64,000 bases of DNA from Minisyncoccota bacterium (GCA_041664205.1 JBAYLF010000004.1:12297-76296), one strand, 5' to 3'. Numbered from the stretch's first letter, positions 3,010-57,913 are shown. Notes: generated by a model not told the origin, from the sequence alone. Program-made: numbers and translations.

Positions 3010-3552
3010 TTATTTATCTTTTTTATCGTCTATTAATTCATACTTTCTCTTCAATAAATAAGCGTAAATTTTTTGAGCTAATATATATTTGCAATCATAC
3101 CAAGGCAGATCGCGTTCGATTTCAAAGACATATAAATGATTGCGCACTTGATCTACGAAATCTTCATCAATTGTATTTAAAATCTTTTTAAGAGATGGTG
3201 GATATCTAAAATTAACCAAACAACCACGAAGTTCCAACTGATCGAAAAAAAATACATATCGCATCCTAGAGTAATCAATAAAAGAAGATACGATTTTACT
3301 AAATAAAAAAAGTAAATCATCACGTCTTCTTGCAAGAGTTGGATTGTTTATTAATTTTTGCTCTACTTCACAGAATATCTGTGTTATTTTACCTGCAAGC
3401 TCAATAAAGTTTTTTATTAATTTAATATTATTTCTCGGTTCGCTTTTTATTAAATCCTTAAAAACATAATCTAGCGCTTTTATCCGATCTAAAAGATCTT
3501 CTATTTCTTTCATATCTACACTAAATGATACAACTAATTGATTATGTATCAA
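3010..3552 (-). CDS. hypothetical protein
   Basis: 180-aa ORF. No recognisable motifs. Its extreme N-terminus overlaps the longest mnmA reading frame, so the true start may be an internal Met. Confidence 0.4.
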   Translation of the reverse strand: MIHNQLVVSFSVDMKEIEDLLDRIKALDYVFKDLIKSEPRNNIKLIKNFIELAGKITQIFCEVEQKLINNPTLARRRDDLLFLFSKIVSSFIDYSRMRYVFFFDQLELRGCLVNFRYPPSLKKILNTIDEDFVDQVRNHLYVFEIERDLPWYDCKYILAQKIYAYLLKRKYELIDDKKDK

Positions 3553-3608
3553 ATTTTATAAGCACACGATATCTGGCATATTGTATTTTTTATGATACCA
3601 TAACTAAA

Positions 3609-4724
3609 ATGATCAAAAGTCAAGTAAAAAAAATACCAACAAAACACAGAAAACAAGGACGGAATGTCTTTGTTGGACTTTCTGGTGGAGTTGATTCATC
3701 TGTTGCGGCATATTTACTAAAAAAAGAAGGCTTCAACGTTACAGGAGTTTTTATTAAAGTTTGGCACCCAGACTTTCTAAAATGTAATTGGAAAGAAGAA
3801 AAAAGAGACGCAATGAGAGTTTGCGCTCATTTGGATATTCCTTTTAAAATGCTCGATCTTGAAAAAGAATACAAAAAAGATGTCGTTGATTATATGATAG
3901 AAAAATACAAAGAGGGAATTACGCCAAATCCCGATGTTATGTGCAACAAATACGTAAAATTCGGTGGCTTTTATGATTGGGCTTTGAAAAATGGCGCTGA
4001 CTTCATAGCGACAGGGCACTACGCGATTAAAAACGAAGTAGAAGGAAAATATCAATTATTAGCATCAAAAGACAAGAACAAAGATCAGACGTATTTTTTA
4101 TGGACTCTTACACAAAAACAGCTAGAAAAAATCCTTTTCCCAATAGGGCATTTGCAAAAAGAAGAATTAAGAAAAATTGCAAAAATCGCAGGCCTTTCAA
4201 CTTTTGATAAAAAAGATAGCCAAGGTTTGTGCTTTATCGGAAAAGTAGATATGAGAGACTTTTTAAAAAAATTTATTAAATCAGAGAAAGGAAAAGTTCT
4301 AGACAAAAAAGGAAACGTGATAGGAACTCACGAGGGAGCTTATTTTTATACGATCGGACAAAGACATGGCTTCATCATCAGTAAAAAAAATCCAGAAGAG
4401 AAACCTTTGTTTGTCATTTCTAAAAAAATAGAAAAAAACACGATAACAGTATCTGAAGAACAATTGCCTGAAACTGATATTGGAAACAGGACTGATGTTG
4501 TTATTGAAAATATAAATTGGATTTCAAAAGAATTAATAAATGATAAATCAATTTATTCTGCAAGAATAAGATATAGACAACCGTTGCATGATTGCAAAAT
4601 AAAAAAAATAAATGATAAAAAATGGATAGTATCTTTCATAGAGCCCACTGAACCATTTTCACCAGGACAGTCATTAGTTGTTTATAATAATGACATTTGC
4701 TTAGGTGGTGGAATAATTTGCTAG
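3609..4724 (+). CDS. mnmA: tRNA-specific 2-thiouridylase MnmA
   Basis: PP-loop SGGVDSS in VGLSGGVDSSVAAYLL, and MnmA-like C-terminal region. Start placed at the internal Met (MIKSQV...) to avoid overlap with the upstream gene. Confidence 0.85.
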   Translation: MIKSQVKKIPTKHRKQGRNVFVGLSGGVDSSVAAYLLKKEGFNVTGVFIKVWHPDFLKCNWKEEKRDAMRVCAHLDIPFKMLDLEKEYKKDVVDYMIEKYKEGITPNPDVMCNKYVKFGGFYDWALKNGADFIATGHYAIKNEVEGKYQLLASKDKNKDQTYFLWTLTQKQLEKILFPIGHLQKEELRKIAKIAGLSTFDKKDSQGLCFIGKVDMRDFLKKFIKSEKGKVLDKKGNVIGTHEGAYFYTIGQRHGFIISKKNPEEKPLFVISKKIEKNTITVSEEQLPETDIGNRTDVVIENINWISKELINDKSIYSARIRYRQPLHDCKIKKINDKKWIVSFIEPTEPFSPGQSLVVYNNDICLGGGIIC

Positions 4725-4886
4725 GAACTTATTCTCTGTCTCGTGGTACCCAGGATAAAAAAGACTGTTTTTGAGCGAAAAACTAGACGGAGTACGAAAT
4801 GTAATAGAATTACATTGAGGACGAGTCGAAGTTTTGCAGCCAAAAACAGTCTTTTTTAGACAGGGGGAAGATAGAGAATAGGTTCC
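4724..4886. other. highly structured nested inverted-repeat element (MITE-like element or structured ncRNA)
   Basis: Outer 14-bp inverted repeat GGAACTTATTCTCT / AGAGAATAGGTTCC (one G-T mismatch). Then CTGTCTC/AGACAG, a 17-bp stem AAAAAAGACTGTTTTTG / CAAAAACAGTCTTTTTT, and an inner AATGTAAT/ATTACATT hairpin. Confidence 0.6.
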
Positions 4887-4948
4887 TGTTTCTACTCAAA
4901 ATAAAAAGCTGGTATAATAGATGTAATTAAAAATTTACATTTACTAAC

Positions 4949-5788
4949 GTGCCACAAAAAGATATCTACGTAATAAAACATAGCGGTGAAAAACAAGCTT
5001 TTGATTTTAATAAACTAAAAAGTTCACTGCAGAAATCAAGGATACCGGAGCAAACTGCTGAAAAAGTAGCCGAACATATAAAAAAAGAAGTAAAAAACGG
5101 CATGACTACGAATGAGATTTACGATAGTGCCTATGATTTTTTACACGCAATAGAACGCACATCTGCGGCAAAATATTCGCTAAGAAGATCTATTTTTAGC
5201 CTCGGACCAACAGGTTTTCCTTTTGAGGATCTTGTGGGAGAAATTTTTAAGAAAAAAGGTTATTCGATAAAAAACGATGTGATGATACAAGGTAAGTGCG
5301 TTTCTCATGAGATTGACCTTGTTGCTTGGAAAGAAAATAGTGTAATCGTTTCTGAAATAAAATTCCACAACAAAGTAGGTGAAAAAACCGATCTAAAAGT
5401 TGCTCTTTATGTAAAGGCGAGACTTGACGATCTCTACAAATCAACATTGCATCTTGATGGAAAAGAAAGACATATGGATGAAGGGTGGCTTGTAACAAAT
5501 ACAAAATTCACCACAACCGCAATACAATACGGAACATGCGAAAATATAAAATTGATAGGCTGGAGCTACCCAAAAGAAGGTAACTTGCAAAACCTCATTG
5601 AAGAGTGCGGACTTCATCCTCTCACATGTTTAACAACGCTCTCATTTAATGAAAAAAGAACACTATTAGAAAAGGGGATTGTTATATGTAAAACACTGGA
5701 AAATAATCATGAAATTTTAAGAGATTTGAGATTAGATGATGAAAGAATAAAAGAAGTTTTGGAAGAGATAAAAGTTTTAACAACATAA
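4949..5788 (+). CDS. ATP-cone domain fused to an Mrr-like (PD-(D/E)xK) restriction endonuclease domain
   Basis: N-terminus VIKHSGEKQAFDFNKL... matches ATP-cone (NrdR-like). Central HEIDLVAW...VSEIKF gives a D-(x)n-ExK nuclease motif like the Mrr catalytic domain. GTG start. Confidence 0.65.
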   Translation: MPQKDIYVIKHSGEKQAFDFNKLKSSLQKSRIPEQTAEKVAEHIKKEVKNGMTTNEIYDSAYDFLHAIERTSAAKYSLRRSIFSLGPTGFPFEDLVGEIFKKKGYSIKNDVMIQGKCVSHEIDLVAWKENSVIVSEIKFHNKVGEKTDLKVALYVKARLDDLYKSTLHLDGKERHMDEGWLVTNTKFTTTAIQYGTCENIKLIGWSYPKEGNLQNLIEECGLHPLTCLTTLSFNEKRTLLEKGIVICKTLENNHEILRDLRLDDERIKEVLEEIKVLTT

Positions 5789-5809
5789 ATCTATTATCAA
5801 ATAAAAATA

Positions 5810-6691
5810 ATGAGCCAATATTACAATCCAAAAAGAACAAGAAATGTTTTTGATCCGAGATCAAAAGAACCATTCAGATTGAGCCGATCAAAGATCGACT
5901 TATTCGTTCAATGTCAGCGATGTTTTTATTTGGATATCAGACTCGGAGTCGGACGCCCTTCTTCCTTTCCAATGACTTTAAATAATGCTGTTGACCTACT
6001 AATGAAAAAAGAATTCGACATTCACCGAGTAAAAAAACAGGCTCATCCTTTAATGAAAAAATATGGGATAGATGCAATACCTCTTACTCATGAAAAAATG
6101 GACGAGTGGCGAGATGCACTTCGAAGCGGTGTTTCGTGTTTAGATAAAGAAACAAACTTAATTCTTCGCGGTGGTGTAGATGATATTTGGGTAAATCCAA
6201 AGGGAGAATTTATTGTCGTAGATTATAAAGCAACAAGTAAAGATGAAGAAATCACACTGGACGATGAATGGAAAATTCAATACAAACGCCAGATGGAAAT
6301 TTATCAATGGCTTCTTAGACAAAATGGGTTCAAAGTATCTGAGACTGGATATTTTGTTTACGTAAACGGCAAAACCGACAAAGAAGCATTTGACGCAAAA
6401 CTTGAATTTGATGTCACCATCATTCCTTACAAAGGAGATGACAGTTGGATACACGAGGTAATTATAAATATGAAAAAATGCTTAATGTCTCCAAACTTAC
6501 CTGAAGCTACAAGCAATTGCGACTATTGCAGATACAGAGAATCAGCAGGAACATCTATAAGAGAATTATATAAAGACAAAACAACTGCACTTGCAAAAAA
6601 TTCAGAGAATTTATCAAAACCTCCAAAAGAAAAAAAGAGAACAAAAAATCCAAAAAAAGACGGGGGAATTCAAAACAAAACTATTTTTTAA
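5810..6691 (+). CDS. Cas4-like PD-(D/E)xK nuclease with a probable Fe-S cluster (RecB-like nuclease fold)
   Basis: GGVDDIW...VVDYKAT (D..D-x-K). QMEIYQW matches the QxxxY motif. N-terminal CQRC plus C-terminal CDYC give a 4-Cys pattern typical of Cas4/AddB-type nucleases. Confidence 0.65.
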   Translation: MSQYYNPKRTRNVFDPRSKEPFRLSRSKIDLFVQCQRCFYLDIRLGVGRPSSFPMTLNNAVDLLMKKEFDIHRVKKQAHPLMKKYGIDAIPLTHEKMDEWRDALRSGVSCLDKETNLILRGGVDDIWVNPKGEFIVVDYKATSKDEEITLDDEWKIQYKRQMEIYQWLLRQNGFKVSETGYFVYVNGKTDKEAFDAKLEFDVTIIPYKGDDSWIHEVIINMKKCLMSPNLPEATSNCDYCRYRESAGTSIRELYKDKTTALAKNSENLSKPPKEKKRTKNPKKDGGIQNKTIF

Positions 6692-6800: not shown

Positions 6801-7415
6801 ATGCAACTTGTTGAAGAATTTAATCAAGAATTATTTTTTCGTCTAAAAAAACTTTTAAGTGTATTAAAGCTCCTAGCTACAGCACTTAGAGACGAAAATC
6901 GTGAAGCTTTTTATAAAGAAACAAAGATCAAAATCACAAACGGAAAAGACTTAAGTGGCTTATCAAAAAAAGCTCGCAAACATCATGAATTTGATCAAGC
7001 AGAAGAAGATAAATTTTTTGCTTATCATCTTTATGATTTTTACTTAGGAAAAAAGGGAATCATCGAAATTAAGCCATATCTTATCATCCCAAAAGATGAA
7101 AAAGGAGATGTTATACCTGAGCCAAGTTCTGACGATGTATTAAGACAGATTCTATATACAATCAAAAATTTTGGTCAGTATGTAGAAATTGTCGATAATT
7201 ACAACAGACGAGCAACAGCATCGATTTTGAAAAAAGATGCATGGCTGGTTACAGATGAAGAAGCATCCGAGCACTATAGCAGTGCTGCAGATCATCAAAA
7301 AAACCAGATCTATCTTAAACCCAAAGGTTTATTTGAATTATTCCAGTGGTATAGCGATTTTATCGACTGGGATGAAAGAAAACACGAGGAAGATGAAGAG
7401 GAAAATCCAAAATAG
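6801..7415 (+). CDS. hypothetical protein
   Basis: 204-aa ORF with a GA-rich RBS-like sequence upstream (aagaagggact), followed by a terminator. No family recognised. Acidic C-terminus. Confidence 0.5.
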   Translation: MQLVEEFNQELFFRLKKLLSVLKLLATALRDENREAFYKETKIKITNGKDLSGLSKKARKHHEFDQAEEDKFFAYHLYDFYLGKKGIIEIKPYLIIPKDEKGDVIPEPSSDDVLRQILYTIKNFGQYVEIVDNYNRRATASILKKDAWLVTDEEASEHYSSAADHQKNQIYLKPKGLFELFQWYSDFIDWDERKHEEDEEENPK

Positions 7416-7416
7416 A

Positions 7417-7456
7417 GGGCGGACTTGTTATCAAGTCCGCCCTATTGACTTTTTTA
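7417..7456 (+). terminator. rho-independent terminator
   Basis: Hairpin gggcggacttg-ttat-caagtccgccc followed by a T-run. Confidence 0.6.
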
Positions 7457-7496: not shown

Positions 7497-7667
7497 ATGA
7501 GCACTCAAAGTTCATTCCAAGATGTTGAAAGGACACAATTGGTAATTGCGATTCGTATAAAAAGGCTTAATCGACAAATTGCTGAAGCAAGTGTAAAAGA
7601 TCCCAAAGGACATGCTGTCAAGCTTCTGATGATTGAAAAAAAACAACTGGAATCCCAACAACATTGA
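7497..7667 (+). CDS. small protein (56 aa), possibly DUF465/YdcH-like
   Basis: Strong SD (AAGGGGGTG) 6 nt upstream of the ATG and its own terminator. The coiled-coil-like segment AVKLLMIEKKQLESQ resembles YdcH-family small proteins. Below the 60-aa ORF-track cutoff. Confidence 0.5.
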   Translation: MSTQSSFQDVERTQLVIAIRIKRLNRQIAEASVKDPKGHAVKLLMIEKKQLESQQH

Positions 7668-7738: not shown

Positions 7739-8350
7739 ATGCAAACAAAAGAACAACTATTAGATCAATTAAAAAACGCTTCGAAAGTTTTTGAAAATCA
7801 GCTTATTGAAGAAGCTTTTACAAAAATCGACAGGGCAGACTTCGTTCCTGAAGATTATAATATAGAAGCATACGAAGATTATCCTTTACCAATAGGATAT
7901 GACCAGACAATTTCGCAACCAACGACTACTGCATTTATGTTAGAACTTTTGGACCCCAAACCAGGAGAAAAAATCCTAGACGTTGGCTCAGGATCAGGAT
8001 TTACAACCGCACTACTTGCACAAATAGTTGGAAAAAAAGGAGAAGTTTGGGGAGTAGAAATTATTCCAGAATTAGTAGAAATATCAAAACAAAGCATAGT
8101 AAAATACAACCTTCCACAAGCTCATATAGAACTTACAAAAAAGATGGGTAGAGCAGAAAAAGCTCCTTTTGATAAAATTTTAGTGAGTGCTTCTGCCAAA
8201 GAACTTCCAGGCGAACTTATCAATCAGCTTAAAGTTGGAGGCATAATGGTCATTCCTGTAGAAGAAACTATTTATAAAATTAAAAAAACCGAAAAAGGTT
8301 TTGAGGAAGAAAAAGATTTTCCAGGATTCTTATTTGTGCCGTTAAGATAA
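7739..8350 (+). CDS. pcm: protein-L-isoaspartate O-methyltransferase
   Basis: TISQP motif and SAM-binding LDVGSGSGF. Length and layout typical of PCMT. Confidence 0.85.
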   Translation: MQTKEQLLDQLKNASKVFENQLIEEAFTKIDRADFVPEDYNIEAYEDYPLPIGYDQTISQPTTTAFMLELLDPKPGEKILDVGSGSGFTTALLAQIVGKKGEVWGVEIIPELVEISKQSIVKYNLPQAHIELTKKMGRAEKAPFDKILVSASAKELPGELINQLKVGGIMVIPVEETIYKIKKTEKGFEEEKDFPGFLFVPLR

Positions 8351-8406: not shown

Positions 8407-8913
8407 CTAAAATGAAATCTTTTTAGCTATATCACGCATATAACTTATTACCCAATTTTCCTCAAGATGAACTATTTGAATTCCAAGTTTACCACCTTGT
8501 TCGTGTTCCCATCTAGCACCAAATGAGGTTTCCCATGCTGGTAAAAAATAAAAGCTAGATATTTTTCTTGATTCAAAAATAGGTCCGTAAAAATCTTCGA
8601 GAATTGGTGTGCAATATCCAATGTTACCATTTCCTCGCCATATTTTAACCATTCTATGAAGCGCGTCTTCAAAAGGTATCTGATTAAATACGTTTATTCC
8701 CATTAATTCAAAAAACGCTATAGATAATGAAAAATATTCCGTATTCAAATCTACAGATCCAAAAATTCCACCTGTAGTAATAGGACCGCATACTTGTATT
8801 ATAGGCTTTGGCATATTATCCAAAATTTCCAAAGCAACGGGTGTGAGTTGGCTAAATTCAGTAGCATTTTCAACTCTTGTTAAACGATCAGCATTCCAGT
8901 ATTTAAGGTTCAT
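8407..8913 (-). CDS. hypothetical protein, possibly DUF4406-like (nucleoside 2-deoxyribosyltransferase-like fold)
   Basis: 168-aa ORF. The segment IQVCGPITTGG resembles the AGPhTG motif of that family. Weak assignment. Confidence 0.35.
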   Translation of the reverse strand: MNLKYWNADRLTRVENATEFSQLTPVALEILDNMPKPIIQVCGPITTGGIFGSVDLNTEYFSLSIAFFELMGINVFNQIPFEDALHRMVKIWRGNGNIGYCTPILEDFYGPIFESRKISSFYFLPAWETSFGARWEHEQGGKLGIQIVHLEENWVISYMRDIAKKISF

Positions 8914-8974: not shown

Positions 8975-9577
8975 ATGCAGAACACAGAAGAACGAAAAAA
9001 TCAATTAAAACAGATAAAAGACGAGGTTTTAAATCTAAAAAAATCTCCTTTGTATAACGAACGTGTAAAAAATAAAGTTTTCCCCGTAATAGGAGACGGA
9101 AGTCATTTTGCACACATAATGTTTGTAGGCGAAGCACCAGGAAAAAACGAGGCTGCAACTGGACGACCATTCTGTGGAGCTTCTGGAAAAATTTTAGATG
9201 AACTTCTAGAATCGGCAGGAATAAAAAGAGAAAGCGTTTACATAACAAACATCGTAAAAGACCGACCACCATTTAATCGCGACCCGCTACCAGATGAAAT
9301 AGAAATTTACGGACCATTTCTTGATAGACAAATTGAGATAATTAAACCGCCAGTTATCGCAACATTAGGGAGATACTCAATGACTTATATAATGAAAAAA
9401 TTCGGACTAGAGTTTGAATTAGAACCAATAAGTAAAGCACACGGCAAAGCGTATGAGACACAAACTAGTTATGGAAAAATCAAAATTATTCCGCTTTACC
9501 ATCCAGCAGTTGCAATATACAATTCGAATACTAAAGATACTTTAAAAAAAGATTTCGCAATACTAAAAAAATATTAA
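8975..9577 (+). CDS. udg: uracil-DNA glycosylase, family 4
   Basis: GEAPG motif (MFVGEAPGKNE) and GRPFCGASGKIL. Confidence 0.85.
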   Translation: MQNTEERKNQLKQIKDEVLNLKKSPLYNERVKNKVFPVIGDGSHFAHIMFVGEAPGKNEAATGRPFCGASGKILDELLESAGIKRESVYITNIVKDRPPFNRDPLPDEIEIYGPFLDRQIEIIKPPVIATLGRYSMTYIMKKFGLEFELEPISKAHGKAYETQTSYGKIKIIPLYHPAVAIYNSNTKDTLKKDFAILKKY

Positions 9578-21387: not shown

Positions 21388-22752
21388 ATGAAAAAATATA
21401 TTCTTTTTATTTTTTGTTCGCTGTTAGCTGTTAATTTATTATTTTGCGCGCCTCAAAAAGCTTCGGCAGCCTCTCGTGCAGCGGGAAGCGTTTCATATAG
21501 TGTAGATAATGGAAACGGATCAGTAACGCATTACACATTCTTTATAGTAGGAAAGGCAAAAGAAGTTTACCTCCTACTTTCAAATCCAGCAAGCACCTAT
21601 CAGTATTATTTTGCTCTTATGGGATATCCTTCTTGTGGAAACTTTACTATCTCACTAGTTGCTAAAACAACTTCATGTACTCCGCTTTATCAATGCAGTG
21701 GAAATGCTGTAGTCGAAAGATGCTCAGGAGCAACTCAGCAGTGCTCATACGGATGCTCTAACGGATCTTGTAATCCTATGCCTCCGACTCCACCACCTCC
21801 TCCACCAACTAATTTAAGTGGCTCATGCTCAACTGGTGGTAAAACTGCAAACTTCTCTTGGGTTAACGCTGCAGGCTACAACACAGTATACTTCCGGGCA
21901 GTAGATACAACATTATTCGGATGTGTAGCGCAAAACCTAAGTAACCTCTGGAATGAAGGAGTAGTAGGCACAACTTATTCTATTAATACAACACCTGGGC
22001 ACTCTTACTGCTGGTGGTTAAATACAAAAGCTTCCGATGGAAAATGGAGCACCGAAGCAAACACAAAAAACTTTACTTGTGAATGCGATAACGGCACTTC
22101 TAATCCTCCAACATGCACGAAATGCCCGAGTGGTTATAGCCTCATAAACAATGTCTGCACTCTTGTATGTTCTAACGGCGCTACAGATTATCCAACATGC
22201 ACCATATGTCCAATTGGCTATAATCTAATAAATAATATTTGCACTCCTGAATGTTCCAATGGGGCTTCTAATTATCCTACGTGCACTATATGTCCATCTG
22301 GATATACTTTAATAAATAATGCCTGCATTCCTCCTAGTTGCACTCCGAGCTACAGATGTAATGCCGACAACACAGGAGTAATAAATAGTTGCAACAACGG
22401 AACGACTCTATGCCCAACAGATCAAGTTTGCATCGAAGGTGCATGTTCTTCTTTGAAAATAAATAAATTTAATCCTAGTCCATCTCAAGTTCCAAAAAAT
22501 TCTGGATGTAATCTTGTATATGATATCTCAGGCGCACTATCGTGTAATATAACAGGAACAAACATTGGTGGGCAGGGAATTAACTCCATATCATTACCTC
22601 TGATCTCAGGCACAATAAGTAGCAGCACAAAGTCAGGACCCATTCAAACAAAAACAACATACACTCTGTCGTGCGCTGATACTGCTCATGTCATACATTC
22701 AAAGCAAGCAAACTGTTTGATGATGGTTGATATCATCTTCAATGAGTTCTAA
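21388..22752 (+). CDS. secreted Cys-rich repeat protein with poly-Pro linker
   Basis: Signal peptide (LLAVNLLFCAPQKASA). PPTPPPPPP linker. Tandem about 20-aa units CxxCPxGYxLINNxC(T). Confidence 0.7.
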   Translation: MKKYILFIFCSLLAVNLLFCAPQKASAASRAAGSVSYSVDNGNGSVTHYTFFIVGKAKEVYLLLSNPASTYQYYFALMGYPSCGNFTISLVAKTTSCTPLYQCSGNAVVERCSGATQQCSYGCSNGSCNPMPPTPPPPPPTNLSGSCSTGGKTANFSWVNAAGYNTVYFRAVDTTLFGCVAQNLSNLWNEGVVGTTYSINTTPGHSYCWWLNTKASDGKWSTEANTKNFTCECDNGTSNPPTCTKCPSGYSLINNVCTLVCSNGATDYPTCTICPIGYNLINNICTPECSNGASNYPTCTICPSGYTLINNACIPPSCTPSYRCNADNTGVINSCNNGTTLCPTDQVCIEGACSSLKINKFNPSPSQVPKNSGCNLVYDISGALSCNITGTNIGGQGINSISLPLISGTISSSTKSGPIQTKTTYTLSCADTAHVIHSKQANCLMMVDIIFNEF

Positions 22753-33900: not shown

Positions 33901-33917
33901 TTTATAAATTTTTATTT

Positions 33918-33989
33918 TGTCATTCCCGCGAAGGCGGGAATCTAGTTTCTGCCTGCTTAATCTGGATTCCCGCCTTCGCGGGAATGACA
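33918..33989. repeat. GC-rich palindromic repeat element, copy 1 (two inverted hairpin units)
   Basis: TGTCATTCCCGCGAAGGCGGGAATC-tagtttctgcctgcttaatctg-GATTCCCGCCTTCGCGGGAATGACA. Each unit is ATTCCC-N8-GGGAAT. Near-identical to 40316-40364. Confidence 0.7.
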
Positions 33990-34001
33990 CAAATTTTTTA
34001 A

Positions 34002-52367: not shown

Positions 52368-52439
52368 GGCCCTATCGTCTAATGGTTAGGACGCCGGCTT
52401 CTCAAGCCGTTAATCCGGGTTCGACTCCCGGTAGGGTCA
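52368..52439 (+). tRNA. tRNA-Glu (anticodon CTC), no encoded CCA
   Basis: Cloverleaf folded by hand. Acceptor GGCCCTA/TAGGGTC. D-arm GTCT-AATGGTTA-GGAC. Anticodon loop TTCTCAA. T-arm CCGGG-TTCGACT-CCCGG. D-arm closely resembles bacterial tRNA-Glu. Confidence 0.8.
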
Positions 52440-53333: not shown

Positions 53334-53435
53334 AAACACCCCGTTATCTGAGCTGTGAGGCAAAAATACATTACTAGGCACCGTTTCCAACGATGATAAG
53401 TGATGAATACTCACAGCTCAGATAACGGGGTGTTT
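53334..53435. repeat. perfect 26-bp inverted repeat with 50-nt loop
   Basis: AAACACCCCGTTATCTGAGCTGTGAG ... CTCACAGCTCAGATAACGGGGTGTTT. On the - strand it is followed by TTTTTTC, so it could terminate the murF operon. Confidence 0.7.
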
Positions 53436-56685: not shown

Positions 56686-57051
56686 TTATTGATAGGTTTT
56701 GGAACTTGGAGCCTCTCCGAGAGTGCGCTTCGTTATAAATTTTGGTTTTGAAATTGCTTTAAAACCCATCTCGCTTGCTAGAGCAAGATTTACACCATCT
56801 TTTACTTTAAAATATTCTGATTCTAAAACATTAACTTTTGAGGTTGAAATGGATAGATCGTTTGATAAGCGCTTTATTTGAACAGTGTTCAAAACTGCAT
56901 TCTGAACAAGGTATACATAAACGCATAAAAGTAGAGACAAGCACAAAATAACAACCCAAACGAATGGTTTGACCAACTCTTCATTTGTTATTGCTTTTGT
57001 AATATATCTCATATGTTTTTTATTATTTTTGAATAATCCTAAGCTTTGCAC
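56686..57051 (-). CDS. ftsL: cell division protein FtsL-like (small bitopic coiled-coil protein)
   Basis: Single TM helix and short periplasmic coiled coil. Sits between rsmH and ftsI. The true start is probably the Met at 57012. Confidence 0.6.
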   Translation of the reverse strand: MQSLGLFKNNKKHMRYITKAITNEELVKPFVWVVILCLSLLLCVYVYLVQNAVLNTVQIKRLSNDLSISTSKVNVLESEYFKVKDGVNLALASEMGFKAISKPKFITKRTLGEAPSSKTYQ

Positions 57052-57913
57052 TTCTCGATCTTGGATTATTTCTTAATTCTTCTTCGCTTGGAACTATTGG
57101 CTTTTTCGTGATTATTGTTGCTTCGCCGTTATCCTTAAGCTCCCTAAAATAATTTTTCACTATTCTGTCTTCTAGGCTATGAAAGGCAATAACTGCGATC
57201 CTTCCGCCTTTTGATAATCTTTCAAATACTTTCCTCAATCCTTCTTTTAGCGATTCCGTCTCGCCATTAACTGCTATTCTTAATGCTTGGAAAGTTTTTG
57301 TCGCGCAATTGATCCTTCCATTTCGGTAAAATCCCGGCACTGCGCTTTCTATGATCCGAACTAAATGAAATGTTGTTTCTATCGGTTCAATTTTTCTTTG
57401 CTCCACTATCGCTCTCGCGATCCTTAAAGCAAATCTTTCATCTCCGTAACCGTAGATTATATCTGCGATATTTTGTTCCTCCCATTCATTAACTATTTCT
57501 CTGGCGGTAATATCTGATTCGCCTGGGTCTGTTTTAAATGTCATTAGCAACGGTTCATCTTTTTGAAAACTGAATCCCCTTTTGCTTTCTTCGAGCTGAT
57601 TTGAGCTTAAGCCGAGATCGAATACAACTTTGTCTACCGTGTCTATTTTTAATTCATCTAAAACTTTATCTACATTTCTAAAATTTTCTTCCTTAAGAAC
57701 AAAATCTGCATCAAGAGATTCTAAAAGTTCTTTTGCCTTCAGAAGAGCGTTATGATCTTGGTCAATACCAATTATCTTTATTCCGCTTCCAAATTCTCTT
57801 GCCACTTTAGACGAATGCCCTCCTCCATTGATCGTGCAATCAAGAAAGATGTCGCCTTCATTTAGCTCTAACCCCTCTATGACTTCATTTAAAAGAACTG
57901 TGATGTGCTGCAT
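57023..57913 (-). CDS. rsmH: 16S rRNA (cytosine1402-N4)-methyltransferase RsmH (MraW)
   Basis: LLNEV...DCTINGGGHS motif. SAM-methyltransferase fold. Confidence 0.9.
   Translation of the reverse strand: MQHITVLLNEVIEGLELNEGDIFLDCTINGGGHSSKVAREFGSGIKIIGIDQDHNALLKAKELLESLDADFVLKEENFRNVDKVLDELKIDTVDKVVFDLGLSSNQLEESKRGFSFQKDEPLLMTFKTDPGESDITAREIVNEWEEQNIADIIYGYGDERFALRIARAIVEQRKIEPIETTFHLVRIIESAVPGFYRNGRINCATKTFQALRIAVNGETESLKEGLRKVFERLSKGGRIAVIAFHSLEDRIVKNYFRELKDNGEATIITKKPIVPSEEELRNNPRSRSAKLRIIQK

Follow-up and report, generated by a model that had tools for sequence, protein, structure and literature searches.

A 64,000-nt stretch of DNA from a Minisyncoccota bacterium (GCA_041664205.1 JBAYLF010000004.1:12297-76296), referred to below as the window, carries two adjacent nuclease genes, here called A and B. 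The product of A joins an ATP-cone to a Mrr-like PD-(D/E)xK endonuclease core and a C-terminal (HhH)2-like domain, and that of B is a stand-alone nuclease of the RecB/Cas4 superfamily. With moderate confidence, A and B are read as independent, vertically inherited nucleases of DNA metabolism that lie side by side through an old collinear housekeeping block, YceG-mnmA-A-B-PCMT...UDG-PepF-AlaRS, and not as a dedicated two-gene system. The host is Candidatus Paceibacterota, a tiny symbiotic bacterium belonging to the candidate phyla radiation (CPR), and the window is core chromosome of a metagenome-assembled genome.

The co-orientation of the two genes and the gap of 21 nt between them, both described in a first-pass annotation made from the sequence alone, hold, as both open reading frames (ORFs) are present on the same strand; no terminator-like site was seen between them. 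The exact protein sequences of A and B are already in NCBI, where they come from a 90.5-kb contig of the genome. Each is a new member of a family that is known to databases and experimentally uncharacterised.

Conserved gene order around A and B

Two samples of related loci were compared. The A-centred sample consists of 80 loci from species-representative genomes, all of Patescibacteria type and the best 80 of at least 594. The B-centred sample consists of 80 metagenome loci at 53-72% identity to B, the best 80 of at least 551. A, B and the window neighbours were located in these loci by tblastn, and counts include only those loci where the flank is long enough.

The constant neighbour of A is mnmA, the gene for tRNA 2-thiouridylase, and not B. 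Of 72 A-centred loci, 69 have mnmA upstream of A in the same orientation, 51 of them within 400 nt, and the spacer between the two genes is often shorter than 50 nt. B is present downstream of A within 1.5 kb in 23 of 67 A-centred loci, with a distance of 100 nt or less in 11, and in 37 of 67 a co-oriented gene for a UDG-superfamily uracil-DNA glycosylase (UDG) lies no more than 4 kb downstream of A. All 13 loci that have both B and UDG show the order A-B-UDG. From the side of B the association is weaker still: A is next to B in two of 55 B-centred loci (~4%), and no conserved neighbour of B was detected in the 80 loci, where the largest cluster of neighbouring proteins comprises 5 of 250.

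The genome GCA_040384245.1 is collinear with the window around the pair and has the order DUF8128-YceG-mnmA-A-B-PCMT, followed by PepF-AlaRS. There B abuts the PCMT gene, and an HD-domain gene replaces both the ORF at 8407-8913 and UDG of the window. Whether B adjoins A follows clade membership: the nearest neighbour by A sequence has the same state with a frequency of 0.88, versus 0.535 when states are permuted, and not one of 2000 permutations gave a value as high. Across the related loci, pairwise identity averages 0.50 for A, 0.58 for B, 0.53 for mnmA and 0.58 for UDG, and the distances of A correlate with those of mnmA (r 0.58).

Six archaeal loci that encode relatives of A were also inspected. 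In all six the gene stands alone amid unrelated housekeeping genes, and a conserved partner (a Cas4-like gene, a methyltransferase gene, mnmA or Hjc) was looked for across them and not found; an Hjc gene three genes downstream of A in Geoglobus is one case only. In one of the archaeal loci, genes for an IS-type transposase and a HicA toxin lie upstream at a distance of a few kb.

The A-B pair is ordinary synteny that comes from the conservation of gene order in a core block of the chromosome. The first-pass annotation had proposed an orphan two-nuclease module, and this is not borne out by the counts from either sample, nor by the archaeal genes, which stand alone. It had also named, as a result that would speak against a module, a lack of co-localisation in relatives with the genes in conserved housekeeping contexts instead, and this is largely what was found, with the pair embedded in the conserved block YceG-mnmA-A-B-PCMT-UDG-PepF-AlaRS-ribosomal proteins.

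Pfam scans of about 58 ORFs, essentially every ORF of at least 110 aa in the window, show the same setting. The families detected are all of core functions and include ribosomal proteins S13, S11, S4, L17, L13 and S9, RpoA, AlaRS, GltX and several aminoacyl-tRNA synthetases. YceG, MnmA, PCMT, UDG, PepF, MurG, FtsW, MraY, ScpAB, penicillin-binding proteins and MraZ are also present, together with DnaJK-GrpE, DnaB, RecR, RmuC, MPG, NUDIX and RsmH, and the remaining ORFs are without any Pfam family. No cas gene, DNA methyltransferase gene or RecB/AddA helicase gene was detected in the window by these scans, and TRF revealed no CRISPR-like array. The first-pass annotation is thus correct that the window is devoid of an array, cas1/cas2, addA/recB helicases and, as far as DNA is the substrate, methyltransferases; two methyltransferases of other kinds, PCMT and RsmH (57023-57913), are encoded.

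A search with PADLOC-DB 2.0 did not reveal a defence system: A has two marginal domain matches (E ~1e-3) and B matches generic Cas4 models only, so that neither gene shows a significant match in a defence-island context. In a PHROG scan B weakly matches phage exonuclease and Cas4-like PHROGs, and A matches one unknown PHROG over 54 residues. The GC content is flat (0.27-0.40 in the first 16 kb and ~0.34 for the A and B genes), with no compositional island. Among 2.9 M viral contigs no relatives of A were found, and B has 14 matches (L171-L184, IMG/VR), nine of which are at 56-60% identity, a value typical of cellular Patescibacteria copies. The contigs concerned may be misclassified CPR fragments or host-flanking regions of prophages. 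The flat GC content, the housekeeping setting, the rates of divergence and the scarcity in viral contigs point to vertically inherited core genes and not to a mobile defence island, and the suggestion that the pair is a defence system finds no support in these results.

Architecture of the two nucleases

A is a three-domain protein: an ATP-cone, a PD-(D/E)xK core and an (HhH)2-like DNA-binding domain (Table 1). Mrr_cat (PF04471) is detected by Pfam on residues 89-203 with an E value of 2.5e-7 (31.2 bits versus a cutoff of 21), and residues 94-276 align with the structure of AF1548 from Archaeoglobus fulgidus (PDB 1Y88) with E 1.7e-27, or E 5e-39 when a family profile is used. The AlphaFold (AF2) model of A, for which 28 homologs were the input, has a predicted local distance difference test score (pLDDT) of 89.4 and a predicted TM score (pTM) of 0.83, and in a fold search of this model the N-terminal domain matches the cones of NrdR and of ribonucleotide reductase (RNR). 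A thus has the cone, the Mrr_cat core with D...ExK and the AF1548-like C-terminus of the AF1548-like ATP-cone nucleases. The sequences HEIDLVAW and SEIKF are both present, and the active site residues E121, D123, E136 and K138 are invariant over 28 bacterial and archaeal sequences, as are several other residues of the core, which confirms the Mrr-like nuclease first proposed from these motifs. The same D...ExK corresponds to the predicted catalytic residues D38/E51/K53 of AF1548 (PMC1821046).

The cone had been described as NrdR-type. It is an ATP-cone, but the narrower label does not fit: the NrdR model TIGR00244, which represents a Zn-ribbon plus a cone, gives 17.6 bits versus a cutoff of 124.65 and covers cone residues 7-51 only, and RNR cones match equally well. 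A shares with NrdR and the ATP-cone RNRs the cone fold, and its residues at the positions aligned with the inner-site adenine lid and pocket of NrdR are conserved. It differs from them in that it has neither a Zn-ribbon nor an RNR catalytic domain, its output is a nuclease, and the outer-site Tyr of NrdR is not conserved. With the Mrr-family type IV enzymes A has in common the Mrr_cat domain and the lack of a cognate methyltransferase. However, no Mrr_N winged-helix reader domain was detected in A by Pfam, its N-terminus being the ATP-cone, and its setting is neither mobile nor island-like and its conservation is at a housekeeping rate. Compared with Can2, Card1 and Cdn1, in which a CARF domain is linked to a nuclease, A has an ATP-cone as the sensor, an additional (HhH)2 domain and a place in the core genome with no cyclase or CRISPR context.

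In an alignment of bacteria and archaea, the cone has three invariant residues, K10, G13 and K22, and near-invariant ones at E16, F18 and T54, and L23 is near-invariant in the bacterial homologs. In a profile alignment with Escherichia coli NrdR, V8, K10, E16, F18, K22 and L23 correspond to Val51, Lys53, Glu59, Phe61, Lys65 and Leu66, respectively, residues that cover or bed the adenine of the inner-site nucleotide in NrdR (bioRxiv 10.1101/2025.03.28.645925). This conservation of adenine-site residues makes it likely that A binds an adenine nucleotide. The linker between cone and nuclease, LGPxGFxFE, may be an allosteric hinge, and a nuclease gated by an adenine-nucleotide sensor is a viable view of A.

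An exhaustive HMMER search of 1.84 billion representatives gave 432 clusters (50% identity representatives) for the A family at E<=1e-30. Nearly all of the 432 are 270-295 aa in length and align end to end, and thus the three-domain architecture is fixed. A search with the 1Y88 sequence yielded archaeal relatives of ~260-280 aa with ATP-cone, Mrr_cat and AF1548-like_C domains (PF03477, PF04471 and PF22357). Members are found in Patescibacteria, Archaeoglobus, Geoglobus, Ferroglobus, Aenigmarchaeota, Nanoarchaeota and Hadesarchaea, with identities of ~33-39% between A and the archaeal sequences. A and the full-length archaeal homologs of AF1548 share three domains and a length of ~265-280 aa. 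A differs from these in being encoded by a bacterium (CPR), in an mnmA-linked block not present in archaea. The AF1548 chain that was crystallised has 199 aa and is without a cone, but a 99%-identical protein of 265 aa (P0241) and all close archaeal relatives have one. The 199-residue chain therefore appears to be truncated at the N-terminus, and the structural-genomics gene model probably missed the sensor domain. In the literature searched, no functional study of the family was found; the sole find is a 2007 GOS prediction of AF1548 as a restriction-like nuclease.

The best Pfam family of B is PDDEXK_1 (PF12705; E 6e-13, 49.7 bits versus a cutoff of 22). The RecB motifs D124/D125, D138-Y-K140 and Q161...Y165, which include VVDYKAT and QMEIY, are invariant in 24 homologs, and so are the four cysteines, which form a 2+2 pattern, CxxC...CxxC. 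The motifs listed in the first-pass annotation are therefore all present, and the domain architectures proposed there for both proteins are supported by profile searches (ATP-cone, Mrr_cat, Cas4/PDDEXK_1) and structure prediction. Its designation of B as Cas4-like holds at the level of the superfamily but not for Cas4 proper. Cas_Cas4 (PF01930) barely passes (E 3.6e-5, 24.4 bits versus a cutoff of 22.7), and the Cas4 equivalog TIGR00372 stays at 34.8 bits versus a cutoff of 65. The canonical Cas4, SSO0001, has one N-terminal and three C-terminal cysteines, an arrangement that is not that of B; in an alignment of the two, the C-terminal CxxC is the only cysteine pair of B with a counterpart.

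The AF2 model of B has a pLDDT of 82. Its Foldseek neighbours are the DinG nuclease domain, RecE, AdnAB, SSO0001, MGME1, Exo5 and Pcal_0546, all of the RecB/Cas4/Exo5 group, and the matches are remote (E 1e-5 to 1e-3, TM 0.23-0.45). Likeness to Cas4 structures is marginal (profile E 0.06, TM 0.23-0.37). Classification of B as Cas4 was considered and rejected, as a profile search against PDB sequences gave only the marginal match to SSO0001. The features that accompany a CRISPR-associated Cas4 (cas1/cas2, an array) were not found in the 64 kb, and the 80 B-centred loci show no conserved neighbour.

B is best read as a solo-Cas4/PF12705-type nuclease of the RecB family with a putative four-cysteine metal cluster. 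Like the solo-Cas4 proteins (Hudaiberdiev et al. 2017, PMC5704561) it has the RecB motifs and four conserved cysteines, lies outside CRISPR loci, is found in CPR and diverges at the rate of neighbouring housekeeping genes, in keeping with their vertical inheritance under purifying selection. Solo-Cas4 genes are enriched in CPR and DPANN and are mostly vertical, and the pfam12705 branch is not CRISPR-associated (PMC5704561). A feature additional to solo-Cas4 is a Lys-rich tail with a terminal TLF motif: in 41 of 45 long-tailed homologs [LIM]F occurs within the last five residues, mostly as TLF and in the form T/S-L-F (homologs P0122-P0174). The tail resembles a short linear docking motif, possibly a clamp-binding one.

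Hairpins, neighbouring genes and other features of the window

The spacer between mnmA and A, normally short, is lengthened in the window by a near-perfect hairpin, in agreement with the palindromic element noted upstream of the pair in the first-pass annotation. No Rfam family was found for it, and miRNA-like matches are far below gathering scores; a scan of the whole window with Rfam detected only a tRNA at 52368-52439. The hairpin was also considered as a repeated mobile element or a demonstrable miniature inverted repeat transposable element (MITE), and this was rejected, as the window has no second copy of it and the 160 loci contain nothing related to it in sequence. Equally long hairpins of unrelated sequence, with z scores of -5.6 to -9.0, are found in the mnmA-A spacers of four related loci (L006, L018, L042 and L050). 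Other inverted repeats in intergenic DNA of the window are at 569-668 (arms of 49 nt with 78% complementarity), 33915-33992 (34 nt, 91%) and 53334-53435 (26 nt, perfect, with a 50-nt loop). Long hairpins thus look like a general property of these genomes and not part of a nuclease system, and those between mnmA and A could be terminators, insulators or palindromic insertions. The box TGGTATAAT between the hairpin and A is a putative promoter, which a two-hexamer promoter scan did not flag.

Downstream of B are two small orphan ORFs. Their presence was as first described, but of the terminators ascribed to both, a clear one follows only the first. This first gene, ORF C, encodes an acidic protein that has no match in Pfam, NCBIfam, PADLOC or PHROG and no tblastn match in the 160 related loci, and it is a singleton cluster among ~15 billion proteins. 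ORF C and the 56-aa ORF are a lineage-specific insertion between B and PCMT. At the place equivalent to the window ORF between PCMT and UDG, a relative has an HD/YfbR-like gene (L169, 10399-10998). The DUF4406 and HD/YfbR families are presumably of nucleotide-salvage types, and nucleotide-handling genes may recur in this block. Elsewhere in the window, an 84-nt tandem repeat (22107-22332; 2.7 copies, 77% matches) lies inside a 454-aa ORF (21388-22752) that has no Pfam family and probably encodes a repeat-containing surface protein.

Table 1. Positions of genes, protein segments and other features, numbered from the first nucleotide of the window
Feature	Position	Strand	Remarks
mnmA (tRNA 2-thiouridylase)	3525-4724	+	Pfam; conserved upstream neighbour of A
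Hairpin in mnmA-A spacer	4722-4887		166 nt, near-perfect; minimum free energy -76.7 kcal/mol, z -10
TGGTATAAT, extended -10-like box	4910-4918	+	read from sequence, 30 nt upstream of the A start codon (GTG)
Gene A	4949-5788	+	279 aa, GTG start; AF1548-family nuclease; NCBI MFA6338865.1 'ATP cone domain-containing protein'
A, ATP-cone (residues 6-80)	4964-5188	+	PF03477, E 9e-8, 33 bits versus cutoff 25.8
A, linker motif LGPxGFxFE (residues 86-93)	5204-5227	+	cone to nuclease; G86, G89, F92 and E93 invariant
A, PD-(D/E)xK core (residues 89-203)	5213-5557	+	Mrr_cat; catalytic E121/D123...E136-x-K138
A, C-terminal AF1548-like (HhH)2-type domain (residues 204-279)	5558-5785	+	
Gene B	5810-6691	+	293 aa; stand-alone RecB/Cas4-superfamily (PF12705) nuclease; NCBI MFA6338866.1 'PD-(D/E)XK nuclease family protein'
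B, N-terminal C35-x2-C38	5912-5923	+	invariant in 24 homologs
B, C-terminal C237-x2-C240	6518-6529	+	invariant in 24 homologs; aligns with CKYC of SSO0001 Cas4
B, Lys-rich disordered tail (residues 245-293)	6542-6688	+	ends in KTIF; pLDDT <50 at residues 277-293
Orphan ORF C with intrinsic terminator	6801-7443	+	ORF 6801-7415, 204 aa, no family match; terminator 7416-7443
Orphan 56-aa ORF	7497-7667		
PCMT (protein-L-isoaspartate O-methyltransferase)	7739-8350	+	Pfam E 4e-56; same position in GCA_040384245.1
ORF between PCMT and UDG	8407-8913	-	weak DUF4406 match, E 8e-4, below cutoff
UDG-superfamily uracil-DNA glycosylase	8975-9577	+	Pfam E 6e-32; frequent downstream neighbour of A

Possible functions and alternative readings

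If A and B are independent nucleases of DNA metabolism, the three domains of A suggest how it may work. The (HhH)2-like C-terminal domain would hold DNA without sequence specificity, and the Mrr_cat PD-(D/E)xK core would cut the DNA so held. The cone would bind ATP, possibly dATP, and shift the oligomeric or conformational state of the protein through the LGPxGFxFE linker, such that cleavage would be licensed in one adenine-nucleotide state only. This is proposed by analogy with the ATP-cones of RNR and NrdR, and a second analogy is with Can2 and Card1, in which a sensor is likewise combined with a PD-(D/E)xK nuclease. The role of A may be DNA maintenance, either the processing of repair or recombination intermediates or a controlled turnover of DNA. 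The core-genome setting, the company of UDG and B, and the kinship with NucS-like and HhH repair enzymes make housekeeping DNA maintenance the most likely role and restriction a less likely one. B probably processes DNA ends, and through its Lys-rich tail with TLF it is probably brought to a partner, for example the sliding clamp.

Several points weigh against this reading. Direct adjacency of A and B, with spacers of 3-90 nt, occurs in ~16% of the sampled species and always in the order A-B, which would fit co-transcription and a degree of functional coupling within that clade. The locus fractions are estimates, being drawn from the best 80 loci per gene. The nearest structural neighbours of the A core include the ligand-gated defence effectors Can2, Card1-like, NucC and Cap4 and also restriction enzymes, in addition to the repair nuclease NucS. 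Mrr-type enzymes that occur on their own, without a partner, can be of the type IV restriction kind, and thus the context alone is compatible with a defence role for A. With regard to the sensor, A of the window has Q at residue 16 (4994-4996), a position that is Glu in at least 90% of the family and corresponds to Glu59 in the adenine lid of E. coli NrdR. Tyr131 of NrdR, the residue that discriminates between ATP and dATP, is without an equivalent in the A alignment, so that dATP is at most a possible ligand. No biochemical data on the A or B family were found in the literature searched.

That A and B form a dedicated module for defence or DNA processing, whereby A would sense a collapse of the nucleotide pool during infection and nick or cut DNA, and B would resect the ends, is very unlikely. 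The small gap between the co-oriented genes, the absence of a terminator from it and the recurrence of the A-B order in related loci are in line with a module. So are the enrichment of both families in small genomes of CPR/DPANN type, mostly without CRISPR (PMC5704561), and the resemblance of the A core to ligand-gated defence nucleases. However, B has no conserved neighbour and rarely has A beside it, two thirds of the A loci are without B nearby, the six archaeal A loci have no Cas4-like neighbour, and adjacency tracks clade membership inside a long collinear housekeeping block; the lack of a PADLOC match and of a compositional island, and divergence at a housekeeping rate, also argue for ordinary core genes. 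It is likewise unlikely, if less so, that A by itself is a solitary type IV-like or abortive-infection nuclease, in which the cone replaces the Mrr reader and a perturbation of the ATP/dATP pool by phage infection releases cleavage of foreign or own DNA. The position of A after mnmA in nearly all loci, a uniform architecture and a divergence that matches that of mnmA are not what this would suggest, and neither is the absence of A from viral contigs; PADLOC gives only the two marginal domain matches, and the six archaeal genes are surrounded by ordinary genes of the cell, none of them next to a recognised partner from a defence system. The (HhH)2-like C-terminal domain is of a type typical of repair proteins. 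On the other side are the Mrr_cat core, the label 'restriction endonuclease' that database sources give to homologs, the absence of a cognate methyltransferase, as in type IV enzymes, and the rarity of CRISPR in CPR genomes (PMC6509639).

A could also be a salvage DNase under feedback control, which, in organisms reliant on scavenged nucleotides, would degrade imported or surplus DNA when deoxynucleoside triphosphates (dNTPs) are short and would be inactive at times of plenty, much as the ATP-cone controls RNR. ATP-cones are the classic sensors of the dNTP pool (PMC4390871), the family is found mainly in Patescibacteria and DPANN-type archaea, and the block has candidate nucleotide-handling genes (the weak DUF4406 match, the HD/YfbR-like gene of the relative and a NUDIX gene nearby). 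The idea is nevertheless quite unlikely, as Archaeoglobus, Geoglobus and Ferroglobus, which are free-living, have members of the family too, and neither a secretion signal nor a linkage to uptake machinery was seen; moreover, the chromosome would be at risk from a cytoplasmic endonuclease that binds DNA non-specifically and is not regulated. Least probable by far is a function of A on RNA (tRNA) that is tied to MnmA. The proximity of mnmA and the often very short spacers are the basis for it, but none of the six archaeal loci has a comparable link to mnmA, the core and the (HhH)2 domain of A match DNA enzymes, and in the window a hairpin and a promoter-like box lie between the two genes.

A further reading, which is rather doubtful as a whole, is that the AF1548 family represents a third functional class of ATP-cone proteins after RNR and NrdR, namely endonucleases switched by ATP/dATP. 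Its conservation would go back to a time before the CPR and archaeal lineages in which it occurs had separated, or the family would have been exchanged between them. Ultra-small symbionts would by this means couple repair or salvage degradation to nucleotide supply, and in the clade with adjacent A and B, the B protein would resect ends made by A.

As a lead to a defence system, the pair is to be dropped. B is a further example of the unexplained solo-Cas4 class, with 2+2 cysteines and a C-terminal TLF tail as distinctive features. The A family is worth keeping: its members combine, in a permanent fusion, an intact ATP-cone, a PD-(D/E)xK nuclease that is likewise intact and an (HhH)2 domain, this fusion has been kept in CPR bacteria, DPANN-type archaea and Archaeoglobi alike, and the only solved structure (1Y88) is without the sensor domain. 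If adenine nucleotides do switch the nuclease, the uses of the ATP-cone would extend beyond the control of dNTP synthesis, and a conserved gene could be given a function in organisms about whose DNA repair and nucleotide economy little is understood.

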